Positions 58,500-64,000 of a DNA stretch of 64,000 nt are shown here, piece by piece. The stretch lies in the IMG/VR virus record IMGVR_UViG_3300032289_001637, positions 30,159-94,158 of that record; one strand, given 5' to 3'. Both the position numbers and the translations under genes were made by a program. The notes below the pieces were generated by a model. The model saw only the letters and a program-made list of their open reading frames with translations. It made no database searches and was not told the DNA's origin. Positions within the stretch are counted from its first letter, which is position 1, and each line of letters opens with the position of its first letter. The stretch comes from a virus.

Positions 58500-59359
58500 T
58501 CCCAGTATCCTGGTCCATAATTTTCAAGTGTTAAACTCCAGGTAACTGCTGGACCTACACCAACAGCATTTACTGCTTGAACTGTTAATTCATAATCTCC
58601 CCATGAACCACCTACTGAATAAGAAGTTGAATAATATGGAGAAGTTCCATAATTTAAGAAATAGTAAAGAATAGGGCTGCCGTTATCCGCAGGTGGATCC
58701 CAATAAAAGTTACCAGAAAGGTTTGCAGTTTGAGCACTTCCATATGAAGTTAGAGCACTTGGGACACCAGCAAAAGTAGTAGCACTTGTTGCAGGGTTTG
58801 TATTAGGACCAGCACCAACAGAGTTGTTAGCACGAACTCTATATGAGTATCCAGTTGCAGGAGCTAATCCTGTATCACTAAATGAAGTAGTTGATCCATT
58901 TGCAGTGGTGTGAATTGGAGTTTCGTTTCTACTAATTGTGTAACTGGTAATAGCAGCACCACCGTTGCTAGATGGAGCAGCCCAACTTAGGTTAATGGAG
59001 TTACTACTTGCTGCAGTGGCAGTAAAGCTTTGTGGAGCAGTAGGAACAGTTGCAAGGGTTGTTGTACTAACTGATGCACTTATACTAGATCCAATAGAAT
59101 TATTTGCCGAAACTCTATATGAATAACTAGTTGCATTAGCCAATCCTGTGTCATTAAATGAAGTAACTGATCCACTTGCAGTTGTATGAATTGATGACAA
59201 ACCTCTATAAACTGTATAGTTCGTAATTGGTAAGCCTCCATCAAAACCAGGTGCGACCCAATTTAAAGATACAGAGTTACTTGTAGGACTTGCGGTAAAA
59301 GATGTAGGAGAACCAGGAACAGTTGCTCCACCTTGAGCAATAACACCAACAGGAATCAT
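58496..59359 (-). CDS. FN3-domain virion protein (start MIPVGV, 59359)
   Basis: Two to three FN3 units; TAATG coupling to the upstream fibre gene. Confidence 0.8.
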   Translation of the reverse strand: MIPVGVIAQGGATVPGSPTSFTASPTSNSVSLNWVAPGFDGGLPITNYTVYRGLSSIHTTASGSVTSFNDTGLANATSYSYRVSANNSIGSSISASVSTTTLATVPTAPQSFTATAASSNSINLSWAAPSSNGGAAITSYTISRNETPIHTTANGSTTSFSDTGLAPATGYSYRVRANNSVGAGPNTNPATSATTFAGVPSALTSYGSAQTANLSGNFYWDPPADNGSPILYYFLNYGTSPYYSTSYSVGGSWGDYELTVQAVNAVGVGPAVTWSLTLENYGPGYWD

Positions 59360-60228
59360 TACTGTAAGTTTCCAATCAATACCCAAGTATTGGTCCCACG
59401 TTTAATCAAAGTTGCAGCAGACCATCTAGATTTAATTATGCGACTAGTAGCACCAGTAAGAGAATAGTAGTCAACTGTTACACTAGCAGAAGGAGAAATA
59501 GTTGTTGCACCAGCACCAGTTTGAATAACAGTAATTTCAGTACCAATTGGAAAAGCAACGCTTGCATTAAGTGGAACGGTAAGTGTATTAGCAGAAGCAT
59601 TGTTCATCTCAACATACTTACCAGCATCAGAAAGAATAAGAGTATAAGTAGTACCAGTTTGAGCATTAGTTGATGGATATAGTGGTGCATAAGTTGTAGA
59701 AGCAGATGCCTGGGTTAGGTAAGTTGTTGAGGCAGATGCTTGAGGAAGATACGTTGTAGAAGCAGATGCCTGGGTTAGGTACGTTGTTGAGGCAGATGCT
59801 TGAGGAAGATACGTTGTAGAAGCAGATGCCTGGGTTAGGTACGTTGTTGAGGCAGATGCTCTGGTTAGATAGTTTGTAGAAGCAGATGCCTGGGTTAGGT
59901 ACGTTGTTGAGGCAGATGCTTGAGGAAGATACGTTGTAGAAGCAGAAGCCTGGGTTAGGTACGTTGTTGAGGCAGATGCTCTGGTTAGATAGTTTGTAGA
60001 AGCAGAAGCCTGAGTTAGGTAAGTTGTTGAGGCAGATGCTGCAGTTAAATATGCTGATAAATCTGAACTATCTAGGAAATAATCTAAAGCAGACCAAACA
60101 CTTGATCCATTTCCAATTTTAAATTTTCCAGTATTTGTTTCAAATCCAATTTCACCTGCAAAAAGAGTGGGATTAGCACTTGTCCAGTTTGCTGCGGTAT
60201 CTCTTCTTACTTGAATTTTAGTTGCCAT
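59359..60228 (-). CDS. Fibre protein with Mtd_N-like N-terminus and 10-aa repeat stalk
   Basis: IQVRRDTAANW...GEIGFETNTGKFKIGNG; 12 TTYLTQASAS-like units; C-terminal NAQTGTTYTL domain. Confidence 0.8.
   Translation of the reverse strand: MATKIQVRRDTAANWTSANPTLFAGEIGFETNTGKFKIGNGSSVWSALDYFLDSSDLSAYLTAASASTTYLTQASASTNYLTRASASTTYLTQASASTTYLPQASASTTYLTQASASTNYLTRASASTTYLTQASASTTYLPQASASTTYLTQASASTTYLPQASASTTYLTQASASTTYAPLYPSTNAQTGTTYTLILSDAGKYVEMNNASANTLTVPLNASVAFPIGTEITVIQTGAGATTISPSASVTVDYYSLTGATSRIIKSRWSAATLIKRGTNTWVLIGNLQ
59690..60052 (-). repeat. 30-bp tandem array (TTYLTQASAS x12)
   Basis: Directly visible 30-bp periodicity. Confidence 0.95.
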
Positions 60229-60274
60229 AATAATTAATTATATCATTAAAGATTAATTATAATTCTGCAAACTA

Positions 60275-61762
60275 CTACAATTCCGCACTAAATCCGATAT
60301 AGCCAGAAGATGAAAGAGAAAGAACAATTCCCTCACCAATGGTAAATACTGAACTCCCATGTGTGTAAGTAATTGTTGGAATACCTATTGCTTGTAATGT
60401 AGAAGTCAAAACAGTAGTTCCTGTGTTGTATAAAGTCCCAGCCGAAGCAAATCTTGAAACAGAAAAACCTGAAGAATCAATAGATGAAGCTTGAGTTCTA
60501 AGTGAATTTACTGCAAGAACAGGAGCATTAATACCAGTTGCAGAAAACGCATATCCCGTGCCGATAAGAGATGTAGAACCATTGCCATTTAGTCTGTGGT
60601 AATACCTTCGACACAATTCTAGTTCTATACCAACATGTCTGTACTCAAAAGGGGTAGCGGTTGAACCTAGTTCTAGTTGTAAGCCTGTAACTTCAAACCA
60701 GTCATTAGCACCAGCAGTGCCAACTGGTGTTTGAAGAAGAAGAATTGATAGTGAAGACATAGTACTTGAAATAGTTGCTGTATAAGTAAAGCGTTGCCAA
60801 GAAGTAGTTAAAGTTGCTGTACTATTAAGTGCATTTGTTTGATTAGTCATACCATTACGAACAGATTCGTCAATACCAGTTCCTGTAACCAGTTGTACGG
60901 TTAAGGCGTTTGAAGCAGCTGAGTAGTTAGCTCCAGCACGAGCGTAAAAAGATAAGGAAACAGTCCTTCCTCTTAAAGCCCAAGCGTTAGCGGTCTCAAT
61001 ATGTTGAGTAAAAGCAATTGCTGCAGTGGATATATCACTTGCTATACGCTGAACACGAAGTGCGTAACGAAAATTTGCAGGAATTGTTGCGGTATCAGTA
61101 CTTTGAGACCAAGAAGCTCCTGAAGCTAACCCTGCTCGGTAAACATTCCAACGATCTGCTGTGTAAACAGTAGATGCACCAATAGCTGTAGGACTAGCTG
61201 TAGTAGGTGCACCACGTTGCCAAATATCCATTTCACCATTAATAATTAAGTTACGAAAACCTGTTTGAGCTGTTGGAACTATTGGTGCATAAGTGCTTGA
61301 GGCAGATGCTTGGGTAAGATAGGTACTTGAAGCAGAAGCCTGGGTAAGATAGGTACTTGAAGCAGATACCTGAGGAAGATAGGTACTTGAAGCAGATGCT
61401 TGGGTAAGATAGGTACTTGAAGCAGATGCCTGAGGAAGATACGTTGTTGATGCAGAAGCCTGGGTTAGGTATGTTGTTGAGGCAGATGCTCTGGTTAGAT
61501 AGTTTGTGGAAGCAGAAGCCTGGGTAAGATAGGTACTTGAAGCAGATGCCTGAGGAAGATACGTTGTAGAAGCAGAAGCCTGAGTTAGGTAAGTTGTAGA
61601 GGCAGATGCTCTGGTTAGATAGGTTGTTGATGCAGAAGCCTGGGTCAGGTAAGTTGTAGAAGCAGAAGACTGAGTAAGATATATGACTGAGGCAGATGCC
61701 TGGGTAAGTAGGGATCCTAGCTGAGATGATGAAGCTGTTCTAACAACTGTTACATTTGCCAT
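60275..61762 (-). CDS. Fibre protein with 10-aa repeat stalk and carbohydrate-binding-like head
   Basis: 14 repeat units, then FRNLIINGEMDIWQRG...QLELGSTATPFEYR...CRRYY. Confidence 0.8.
   Translation of the reverse strand: MANVTVVRTASSSQLGSLLTQASASVIYLTQSSASTTYLTQASASTTYLTRASASTTYLTQASASTTYLPQASASSTYLTQASASTNYLTRASASTTYLTQASASTTYLPQASASSTYLTQASASSTYLPQVSASSTYLTQASASSTYLTQASASSTYAPIVPTAQTGFRNLIINGEMDIWQRGAPTTASPTAIGASTVYTADRWNVYRAGLASGASWSQSTDTATIPANFRYALRVQRIASDISTAAIAFTQHIETANAWALRGRTVSLSFYARAGANYSAASNALTVQLVTGTGIDESVRNGMTNQTNALNSTATLTTSWQRFTYTATISSTMSSLSILLLQTPVGTAGANDWFEVTGLQLELGSTATPFEYRHVGIELELCRRYYHRLNGNGSTSLIGTGYAFSATGINAPVLAVNSLRTQASSIDSSGFSVSRFASAGTLYNTGTTVLTSTLQAIGIPTITYTHGSSVFTIGEGIVLSLSSSGYIGFSAEL
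61290..61711 (-). repeat. 30-bp tandem array (TTYLTQASAS x14)
   Basis: Directly visible 30-bp periodicity. Confidence 0.95.
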
Positions 61763-62982: not shown

Positions 62983-63014
62983 TTTGACTTCCTTTCGTTT
63001 GTTTCTATGTTCTA

Positions 63015-63036
63015 AACTTAGCAGATACCACCGACA
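63015..63036 (-). promoter_or_regulatory. Early-type promoter repeat TGTC-N9-TGC-TAAGTT (leftward)
   Basis: Same spacing as the three rightward copies. Confidence 0.65.
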
Positions 63037-63082
63037 AAATCAAGCCAGAAACGCCTTTTTGAGATGAATAGTTAGTGAACAA

Positions 63083-63229
63083 TAACTCACAGGTTATCCA
63101 CAGGATCCAGGCTGCGCCCCGTTTTCCACAGGTTATCCACAGCCTGTTAAGAAGTTGTTAATAAGTCCCCATTTTCTATGTATAAGTTGTGTATAACTAC
63201 TATGATTTATGTGTATAAGTTGTGAATTA
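63083..63229. promoter_or_regulatory. DnaA-box cluster
   Basis: TTATCCACA at 63094 and 63133, TTTTCCACA at 63122; reverse TTATACACA at 63188 and 63210; three degenerate copies. Confidence 0.75.
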
Positions 63230-63277
63230 ATTGTTCATCTATTGTTCATTTAACTACCCCCCTAAATGGGGCAAAAT

Positions 63278-63299
63278 TGTCAGACCCCTCTGCTAAGAT
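63278..63299 (+). promoter_or_regulatory. Early-type promoter repeat TGTC-N9-TGC-TAAGAT
   Basis: TGTCAGACCCCTCTGCTAAGAT. Confidence 0.7.
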
Positions 63300-63313
63300 G
63301 AAATCATAAAGCA

Positions 63314-63372
63314 GTTGAGAATGAGCCTAGCAAATAATCCCGCAAGGGTGAGCCTAGCAAATAAGTCTTAAC
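63314..63372 (+). ncRNA. Candidate structured leader RNA with two-fold symmetry
   Basis: Outer stem GTTGAGA/TCTTAAC, two exact TGAGCCTAGCAAATAA copies, central CCC-GCAA-GGG hairpin. Confidence 0.55.
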
Positions 63373-63393
63373 ACAAACGAAAGGGAAACCGAA

Positions 63394-63543
63394 ATGGCTT
63401 TCACTAAAATCAAAAATGCAAGACTGCTACTAGATGCAGTAAAGGGTTTGGAATACTATGAAAAGCAGTATCCACTAAACGAGTTAATGATTGCTTACTA
63501 CAAAAAGCAGGTTGAGGAATTAACTAAACGAGTCTACGGTTAA
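63394..63543 (+). CDS. Small early protein (49 aa; not in ORF track)
   Basis: MAFTKIKNARLLLDAVKGLEYYEKQYPLNELMIAYYKKQVEELTKRVYG; GAAAGGGA RBS. Confidence 0.7.
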   Translation: MAFTKIKNARLLLDAVKGLEYYEKQYPLNELMIAYYKKQVEELTKRVYG

Positions 63544-63547
63544 AAAC

Positions 63548-63569
63548 TGTCAGACCCTTATGCTAAGAT
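63548..63569 (+). promoter_or_regulatory. Early-type promoter repeat
   Basis: TGTCAGACCCTTATGCTAAGAT. Confidence 0.7.
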
Positions 63570-63603
63570 AAAACTACTAAACAAAAAAAGAAAGAGGTCA
63601 CAA

Positions 63604-63810
63604 ATGACTTACTCAGATGTAATGGAATTAGTAACTACCCCAATGGGTAACACATTCTACAACACCATTCGCTACTATGACGAATGTGAGATTTGCCAAT
63701 CTGCTATGGCTAAAGGTGAGATGCCTTTCATCTCTCACGAGAATTGCTTATACAAGGGCAAGCGTATCGGACACTCATTTGGTCATTGTACCGCTGGGAG
63801 TTGCTACTAA
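63604..63810 (+). CDS. Small Cys/His-rich early protein
   Basis: CEIC...SHENC...GH..GHCTAGSCY; GAAAGAGG RBS. Confidence 0.7.
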   Translation: MTYSDVMELVTTPMGNTFYNTIRYYDECEICQSAMAKGEMPFISHENCLYKGKRIGHSFGHCTAGSCY

Positions 63811-63941
63811 TGAACATTTGCCAAAACTGTGATGAATGGTCAGAATGGAAATCCTGCCCTGCCTGTGATGAATCTATCTGTGGCTATTGTGTCTACTATG
63901 TAGAGCAAGACCTAGCCAACTGTGACCGATACGGTCACTAA
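63810..63941 (+). CDS. Small Cys-rich early protein (start MNICQNC)
   Basis: TAATG coupling; three CxxC motifs. Confidence 0.65.
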   Translation: MNICQNCDEWSEWKSCPACDESICGYCVYYVEQDLANCDRYGH

Positions 63942-63945
63942 AAAC

Positions 63946-63967
63946 TGTCAGACCTCTATGGTAAGAT
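63946..63967 (+). promoter_or_regulatory. Early-type promoter repeat
   Basis: TGTCAGACCTCTATGGTAAGAT followed by an ACAAACGAAAGG leader. Confidence 0.7.
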
Positions 63968-64000
63968 AAAACTAATAAACAAACAAACGAAAGGTTGCCA

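Follow-up and report, generated by a model that had tools for sequence, protein, structure and literature searches.

Behind the predicted promoter of the rightward early operon in the window, i.e. the whole stretch of 64,000 nucleotides analysed here, lies a hairpin element that, judged by comparison with its relatives, is a real, widespread and strongly covarying member of a large, apparently undescribed family of folded RNAs, located in leaders of early genes in uncultured phages from lakes. Its functional unit is predicted to be an asymmetric 12-nt internal loop, 5'-R-UGAGC opposite 5'-CAAAUAA-R, which is clamped by two helices of arbitrary sequence. We tentatively read the element as a multivalent RNA that would capture a conserved, probably host, factor early in infection, mainly as a decoy or sponge acting in trans.

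Fold of the element and covariation in its family

The plus strand of the window contains two exact copies of the 16-mer TGAGCCTAGCAAATAA at 63322-63337 and 63349-63364. With up to two mismatches allowed, 0.09 occurrences of this 16-mer are expected by chance in the 64-kb window; two were observed, and none of 100 shuffles yielded two. The features described in the initial annotation, namely a 7-bp outer helix P1 including one G-U pair, the exact 16-nt repeats, a CCC-GCAA-GGG hairpin between them and a -10 element ending at 63299, were all present in the sequence. The single-sequence fold of the element on the plus strand reaches -12.2 kcal/mol (z = -0.62), a value equalled or surpassed by 45 of 200 shuffles, and the fold of the same region on the minus strand has a z value of +1.32. 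The folding energy of one sequence alone is uninformative for this element, and because the single-sequence fold is not better than chance, the case for the element rests on the comparison with its relatives. As shown by this comparison, the predicted fold is one continuous hairpin comprising, in this order, P1, loop A (UGAGC/CAAAUAA), the 4-bp middle helix Px, loop B (CAAAUAA/UGAGC) and P2. The window copy is predicted to be a single rod-like hairpin with its two loops placed head to head across the CUAG:CUAG helix, and this placement accounts for the two direct 16-nt repeats. Its parts are as follows, in window positions:

63278-63299, plus strand: promoter-like element consisting of TGTCAG (63278-63283) and an extended -10 TGCTAAGAT (63291-63299), by consensus match only
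about 6-8 nt past the -10, plus strand: predicted transcription start according to the promoter-like match, with the folded element from about +8
63314-63320, plus strand: 5' strand of P1, GUUGAGA, pairing with 63366-63372 (7 pairs including one G-U)
63321, plus strand: junction purine A opposite G63365, a predicted non-canonical purine-purine pair
63322-63326, plus strand: UGAGC, short strand of the outer loop (module A), from the repeat comparison
63327-63330, plus strand: CUAG, 5' strand of the 4-bp Px, pairing with 63354-63357, from covariation
63331-63337, plus strand: CAAAUAA, near-invariant long strand of the inner loop (module B), opposite UGAGC at 63349-63353
63338-63348, plus strand: P2 hairpin, a U followed by CCC-GCAA-GGG, from sequence, fold and covariation
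63349-63353, plus strand: UGAGC, short strand of the inner loop (module B), from the repeat comparison
63354-63357, plus strand: CUAG, 3' strand of Px, from covariation
63358-63364, plus strand: CAAAUAA, long strand of the outer loop (module A), from the repeat comparison
63365-63372, plus strand: junction G, then the 3' strand of P1, UCUUAAC (63366-63372), from sequence and comparison
63379-63543, plus strand: generic A/C-rich Shine-Dalgarno leader ACAAACGAAAGGG and the first early ORF (49 aa, 63394-63543), from the sequence

The exact 16-mer was found in at least 120 IMG/VR contigs and two degenerate patterns added about 115 more, resulting in 210 distinct versions of the element in at least 230 viral contigs of IMG/VR; many of these contigs are close relatives, and their counts overstate the number of independent events. 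The retrieval patterns fix most loop bases, so the invariance of the loop is partly built in and inflated. The 210 versions contain 79 distinct P1 helices, mostly of 3-8 bp, and 40 distinct P2 helices of 2-7 bp (9-20 nt in total, with unrelated loops); double-sided changes affect each of the six pairs counted in P1 and each of the five counted in P2. The length of Px is 4-5 bp. In a MAFFT alignment of 100 versions, 83% of the cells were standard pairs versus 59% in shuffles, with none of 500 shuffles reaching the observed value, and a model-based alignment yielded 88% versus 59-60%, in both cases against a control that ignores phylogeny. Sliding the pairing partners within the alignment gave 22-48% standard pairs. 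Compensatory changes thus occur in all three helices among the contigs collected, and the pattern of variable stems and conserved repeats that the initial annotation had expected of homologues is the one observed, with the repeats almost invariant.

For Px, we counted CUAG/CUAG 99 times, CUAC/GUAG 58 times and CUAU/AUAG 8 times, as well as GUAG/CUAC, AUAG/CUAU and an uncompensated combination once each. Changes at position 9 of the first repeat go along with changes at position 6 of the second, two changes affect the mirror pair, and the 5-bp variants of Px (CUAAG/CUUAG, CUAAU/AUUAG, CUAGG/CCUAG) are complementary as well. This co-change and the complementarity of the longer variants indicate that the repeats pair with each other via CUAG only (repeat positions 6-9 with 9-6); the longer pairing through GC(C)UAGC initially proposed for them was not borne out. 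The bases flanking the loops are A/G in 103, G/A in 23 and A/A in 10 of the 210 versions. Across 182 16-nt repeats, UGAGC shows only three single changes, its bases being fixed by the retrieval patterns, and CAAAUAA is near invariant under patterns that fixed most loop bases. Because a G is frequent at position 11 of the second repeat (44 of 182) but not of the first (7 of 182), and because the Px pair beside loop B varies often and the one beside loop A hardly ever, the two loops of the twin hairpin are not equivalent.

We consider it very probable that the element acts as a transcript, on account of the variable spacing of its repeats with maintained complementarity, the nested and tandem logic described below and the constant co-orientation with promoters and genes. 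A strand test on the internal pairs recorded 35 instances with G-U versus 19 with A-C, a weak bias of about 2:1 toward the sense strand that is blind to the difference between RNA and single-stranded DNA of this strand. The G-U pair and the GNRA loop had been taken as signs of an RNA on the plus strand; conserved structure was indeed found on that strand, but the GNRA loop is not conserved, and the P2 hairpin varies in length. An element working at the DNA level, either as a pair of operators or as a single-stranded structure for replication beside DnaA boxes, is very improbable. Direct repeats are common as operators, two exact DnaA boxes lie about 180 bp away (63094 and 63133), and one subclass contains a palindrome resembling a CRP box, TGTGA-N6-TCACA. 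However, the start-to-start spacing of the repeats ranges from 25 to about 36 nt instead of being fixed, so that helical phasing is not kept, and the flanks and the spacer change freely, yet stay complementary by compensatory change. Moreover, every copy examined has the same orientation as the early genes, and the tandem and nested forms obey the logic of RNA helices. Repeats acting as double-stranded operators irrespective of the stems, the case that the initial annotation had named against its own reading, are not what this combination of varying spacing and persistent pairing depicts.

In the largest subclass (81 of the 210 versions, e.g. L001, L009, L096 and L108), the central hairpin is always TGTGA-N6-TCACA, a box of the CRP/GlxR type with an invariant stem and a varying 6-nt loop, which may be a DNA site doubling as an RNA hairpin. 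The related GTGA-N6-TCAC occurs directly 3' of the element in L018, L071 and L205.

The internal loop as a repeated module

Further copies within the same contigs were found with a covariance model, and these are built in several ways. Single-loop hairpins are present at L091:1562-1603, L067:2799-2843 and L062:211-259, the first of which has the layout P1-G-UGAGC-CUC-GAAA-GAG-CAAAUAA-A-P1' with a capping helix of only 3 bp. Nested doubles with both loops in the same orientation occur at L083:2651-2697 and L045:2766-2837, whereas 32 versions are triple-loop hairpins (e.g. L018:11818-11883) and five represent a tandem form with two twin hairpins in a row. Since a hairpin may contain one, two or three of these loops, and two of them may point in the same or in opposite directions, two-fold symmetry is optional and not a defining property of the family. 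Together with the tandem hairpins, these forms remove the basis for the dimeric protein or symmetric ligand that had been suggested as the binding partner.

Among 233 loci of about 10 kb, 157 carry one twin hairpin, 46 carry two (four repeats) and 20 carry three (six repeats), and copies are present on both strands in 47 of these loci. The number of loops per phage ranges from one to ten. An extreme case is L205, where three sigma70-type promoters on the minus strand between about 400 and 1000 are followed by two, two and one twin hairpins, respectively, amounting to ten loops in about 550 nt; this array is RNA only, with no ORF until its end. The window genome has a single copy, and a scan of this genome for single loops retrieved only the known site.

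The initial annotation did not recognise a known family, and this still holds after a search against Rfam 15, which gave no gathering-score match in the 64-kb window, no match overlapping the element at E<=10 in the region 63000-64000, and only tRNAs in the loci of 12 relatives. Searching the literature for the repeat sequence returned unrelated matches only, and nothing matching was found in the literature on IMG/VR structured RNAs and on the UAA/GAN loop. A screen of IMG/VR for structured RNAs (Fremin et al. 2023, PMC10690425) lists 10,006 candidates, some of them cis-regulatory leaders; its text describes no candidate with the twin-loop features, and the motif may stand anonymously among these candidates.

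The loop resembles both the kink-turn of the L7Ae family and the UAA/GAN loop in being an asymmetric internal loop between helices, in containing G-A and U-A-A elements, and in occurring in multiple copies per RNA and in either orientation. A kink-turn consists of a 3-nt bulge followed by tandem sheared G-A/A-G pairs beside a Watson-Crick stem. We rejected this assignment, as the required register of the C-stem (G4-C10', C5-G9') conflicts with the covarying C6-G9' pair, and by inspection the long strand, with AAA followed by UAA, places a U instead of a G at position 1b. We know of no L7Ae-like partner in the presumed hosts. The UAA/GAN motif requires a 5'-GAN and a 5'-UAA strand, and the two strands of the element contain 5'-GAG and 5'-UAA; this likeness is a lead only. 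We also rejected a likeness of UGAGC and CAAAU to the D-arm and T-loop of tRNA, which is a coincidence of 5-mers only, and a mimic of CRISPR repeats, which does not agree with repeats as short as these and with 'spacers' that are self-complementary.

Promoters, genes and genomes around the element

Of 137 copies, 125 have a promoter-like element, as judged by consensus matches only, on their 5' side within a narrow range of distances to the first repeat, namely 44-56 nt for TGTCRG and 28-42 nt for a sigma70-type -10. Family-wide, the fold would begin about 10-25 nt into the transcript. In 43 of the 137 copies, the element has its own near-consensus promoter of the sigma70 type and is followed, 10-11 nt past its end, by a TGTCRG promoter serving the genes; such promoter-hairpin cassettes occur up to three in a row. 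A longer outer helix P0, which in the cassette form would reach the downstream TGTC promoter element, was considered and dropped, since the pairing is possible in several loci but its register is inconsistent. The distance from the element to the start codon is not fixed (25-247 nt), and about 40 unrelated sequence clusters are represented among the first ORFs downstream of it. When 8,065 ORFs from 121 loci (about 5-8 kb around the element) were clustered all against all, no family for a partner protein emerged near all copies, and the two commonest neighbour families, present in 76 and 69 loci, have no homologue in the window genome. In every copy examined, the element is co-oriented with the downstream early genes. 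A gene-specific riboswitch or translational operator is unlikely in this context.

The window represents the last 64 kb of a single-contig IMG/VR record of 94,158 bp with 35% G+C, rated 87% complete. The record derives from a siphovirus-type phage, coding for a tape measure protein of 3,243 aa, a portal protein and a DnaE-like polymerase, whose nearest cultured relatives are those of Streptomyces phages (51% identity); the hosts are probably actinobacteria. The rightward early operon starts at 63.3 kb of the window and runs off the end of the contig, and nearly all other genes are on the minus strand. The element heads this long operon of about 20 small genes. The early region contains eight predicted promoters in about 6 kb, and all eight copies of the sequence TGTCAGAC in this genome lie on the plus strand of that region. 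No terminator-like site was found on the plus strand in the 2 kb around the element, the only one of the early region (L122:5213-5231) being several kb off in genome coordinates. Likewise, we recognised no terminator or processing site around the element that would release a discrete small RNA, and the element may therefore never exist apart from the mRNA.

Several further observations concern this region. Promoters of the class TGTCAG-N8-9-TGnTAAGAT are located at window positions 63278, 63548 and 63946 on the plus strand and 63015-63036 on the minus strand, and at genome positions 1164, 1958, 2650, 5241 and 34139. Their TGTCAG box, at about 11 nt from the -10, is too close for a -35 and looks more like an activator box, as in T4 middle promoters. 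In relatives, near-consensus TTGACT-N17-TAnnnT promoters are in use as well, preceded by a conserved ACGGCGTGTCG in either orientation. G/C hairpins directly precede the TGTCAG promoters at 63262-63289 (CCCC-UAAAU-GGGG, where a second CCCC after TGTCAGA offers an alternative pairing) and 63923-63953 (GTGACCG-ATA-CGGTCAC, followed by an A-run); they may terminate the preceding cassette or take part in promoter control. Two exact DnaA boxes TTATCCACA lie at 63094-63102 and 63133-63141 between the divergent early promoters, and the same pair is present 5' of the element's promoter in the relatives G002 (L319:9148 and 9193) and G010 (L320:9057 and 9096). A second small covarying hairpin (GAUUAG-AAAG-CUAAUC, AGUUAG-..-CUAACU) is situated between the element and the ribosome-binding site 3' of triple-loop forms (L018:11885-11925, L037, L050), and in L008 and L027 a hairpin ACGAAAGUAUCUUAGAAAGGAUAAC overlaps the Shine-Dalgarno sequence; these extra hairpins may be separate translational structures. 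The early operon codes for a DUF932 protein, an Api92-like ferredoxin-fold protein and an HslV/proteasome-like peptidase (L122:5966-6493, plus strand; phrog_1040, Pfam Proteasome at threshold), next to small unknown proteins. Two adjacent tail-fibre-like proteins encoded on the minus strand at 59359-61762 contain long arrays of the decapeptide ASASTTYLTQ.

Both ends of the contig cut the rightward early operon (window 63930-63999 and the start of the genome, compared with L320, i.e. G010:1-10500, and L321). In the close and colinear relative G010, about 3.8 kb of small early genes are present that are missing between the end and the start of this contig, so joining its end to its start is not valid for this record. 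In the complete relative G002 (101,664 bp, with terminal repeats), the promoter, the ACGAAAGG leader and the first ORF at the orthologous site are the same, but the element of about 62 nt is cleanly absent in the alignment. Instead, a single copy whose stems are entirely different lies on the opposite divergent early transcript of G002, with the nearest recognisable promoter at a distance of about 190 nt. Its absence from the orthologous site and its presence on the opposite transcript show that the element is a portable insert, of which the phages keep a copy somewhere in their early RNA and not before a particular gene.

Outside viral contigs, a search of 185,579 prokaryote genomes (one per species) yielded only four matches, all in short MAG contigs resembling phage fragments. 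Public sequencing runs containing the sequence were lake and freshwater metagenomes, in which it made up small shares, with no RNA run among those listed. A BLAST search of 50,697 GenBank phages with the early region, 20 kb of the window and the element returned no match, although the search with the element is blind to a bare 16-mer and thus no proof of absence from cultured phages, and the covariance model detected no copy in BillNye and Larnav, the two Streptomyces phages nearest by DnaE.

The tie to promoters raises the possibility of a leader acting in cis, in which the nascent RNA, alone or with a host factor, would either modify its own RNA polymerase by antitermination or anti-pausing in the manner of put, or block 5'-end-dependent decay by RNase E/J, so that early RNA would be finished and persist. 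We regard this as the main rival reading, albeit somewhat unlikely. The put RNA suppresses termination and pausing in cis via the beta' zinc-binding domain of RNA polymerase. The hairpin loop of boxB, which forms the lambda nut site together with boxA, is a GNRA-like pentaloop that is conserved and recognised by N. Both nut and the element are leader RNAs downstream of early promoters, and both include a small hairpin, often closed by a GNRA-like loop; unlike in boxB, the hairpin loop of the element varies (GAAA, GCAA, GACA, CUAA and 6-nt loops), and the internal loops are conserved instead. A boxA-like reading of the 3' flank UCUUAACACAA in the window was rejected, as it is not conserved in the relatives. 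The put RNA of HK022, an RNA-only processive antiterminator located behind PL and PR, consists of about 70 nt in two separate stem-loops arranged as a V (PMC9378689). The element is similar to it in size (about 60-70 nt), in its location just past phage early promoters, in its conservation as an RNA and in the lack of a dedicated phage protein (PMC9378689), and its position is tied to the promoter and not to the gene in the 125 of 137 copies mentioned above. In addition, the copies on both divergent early units in the 47 loci recall putL and putR, and the window element heads a long operon. However, put is V-shaped with a triplex and occurs once per operon in phages of enterobacteria, whereas covariation depicts the element as one continuous rod with repeated identical loops, which is present with one to ten loops per phage, also in tandem hairpins, and was cleanly lost from the long operon of a relative; the hosts here are probably actinobacteria. 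Neither tandem hairpins per transcript nor up to three loops per hairpin are needed for modifying one polymerase. Furthermore, the long DUF932 operon of G002 does without the element, and the only copy of this phage is remote from a recognisable promoter. Because of the many early promoters and the lack of a plus-strand terminator-like site within 2 kb around the element, a need for antitermination is not evident. As for RNA decay, the 10-25 nt between the predicted 5' end and the element leave a free A/U-rich tail, which sets the element apart from a simple 5' stabiliser hairpin.

Possible functions of the conserved loop

We consider the conserved loop most likely to be a docking site for a conserved factor. 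In the multivalent capture that we tentatively favour, the element would be transcribed first, as it lies within the first 70 nt or so past the predicted rightward early promoter; each loop would fold into a fixed non-canonical module and dock one copy of the factor, which would be captured at the start of infection by an RNA acting mainly in trans. The dose would be set by the loops per hairpin (one to three), the hairpins per transcript (one or two) and the promoter-hairpin cassettes (up to three). A host protein seems likelier than a small molecule, because the loop is near constant in the retrieved copies and the neighbouring small early phage proteins differ. A sponge fits better than a role in cis in view of the tandem hairpins, the one to three loops per hairpin, the gene-free promoter-hairpin arrays and the loss from the long operon of G002; a role in cis would account equally well for the presence of a copy behind every early promoter, as on the two divergent units of 47 loci.

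The closest likeness to known sponges is to CsrB and RsmZ, which also present a short motif many times on hairpins, vary in copy number between genomes and have their own strong promoter. They differ in using a GGA hairpin loop instead of an internal loop, and the element is a phage-borne RNA continuing into mRNA; to our knowledge, actinobacteria lack CsrA. The ToxI arrays and pseudo-ToxI of phages are similar in that direct repeats recur every 25-36 nt or so in the phage early region, and the repeat of the element contains AAAU, the cleavage motif of ToxN. However, ToxI units are identical head to tail including their spacers, whereas here only 16 nt are repeated and the spacer and flanks pair in a nested manner. 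No ToxN-like family was found among the early-operon proteins scanned (DUF932, Api92-like, HslV-like), and no toxin gene was noticed nearby.

It is improbable, although less so than an action at the DNA level, that each loop is a small aptamer and the RNA a riboswitch for early transcription or a sponge for a metabolite or a nucleotide immune signal. Several riboswitch classes occur in tandem, as does the element; in the retrieved copies, the unpaired bases are near invariant (partly because the retrieval patterns fixed them) amid freely varying helices, as is usual for aptamers, and an amplified copy number would raise the capacity of a sponge. Against this, we recognised no expression platform, the distance to the ribosome-binding site being variable and no terminator-like site following the element, and there is no consistent association with genes of a pathway, G002 even keeping the downstream gene unchanged without the element. 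Moreover, loops of 5 x 7 nt that can face either way within a rod are more usual in modules that bind protein or have a structural role, and no riboswitch of Rfam matches the element. Phages use protein sponges against the signalling of CBASS, Thoeris and type III CRISPR systems. An RNA counterpart, in which each UGAGC/CAAAUAA loop would be a tiny aptamer for an immune signalling nucleotide of the host, e.g. a cyclic di- or oligonucleotide, is a long shot.

A signal for processing has a comparably small chance of being correct; in that case, early transcripts would have their 5' ends trimmed at the hairpin, either by a nuclease specific for double strands or structure or through self-cleavage of a small motif. 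T7 early RNA has RNase III sites, and the element resembles their general layout in its position near the 5' end of an early RNA and in its rod shape, with about 25 stacked layers and conserved internal loops. Yet the helices are short (P1 3-8, Px 4-5 and P2 2-7 bp) and broken by the 5 x 7 loops, single-loop forms with a 3-bp capping helix exist, no ribozyme of Rfam matches, and multiplying a cleavage site tenfold would have no obvious use.

Irrespective of its function, the family provides a compact and portable RNA module that is used one to three times per hairpin, in both orientations and in at least 210 sequence contexts, which makes it attractive for structural study and ready for addition to RNA databases. 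If the multivalent reading is true, a whole clade of abundant lake phages, which probably infect actinobacteria, opens infection by making RNA, and a 12-nt loop that stays near constant amid changing surroundings points to a conserved partner. The identity of the partner would reveal either an RNA-based way of taking over or disarming the host, or an RNA-only device acting on RNA polymerase or RNA decay, a kind of control that is poorly known in the phylum of the presumed hosts.
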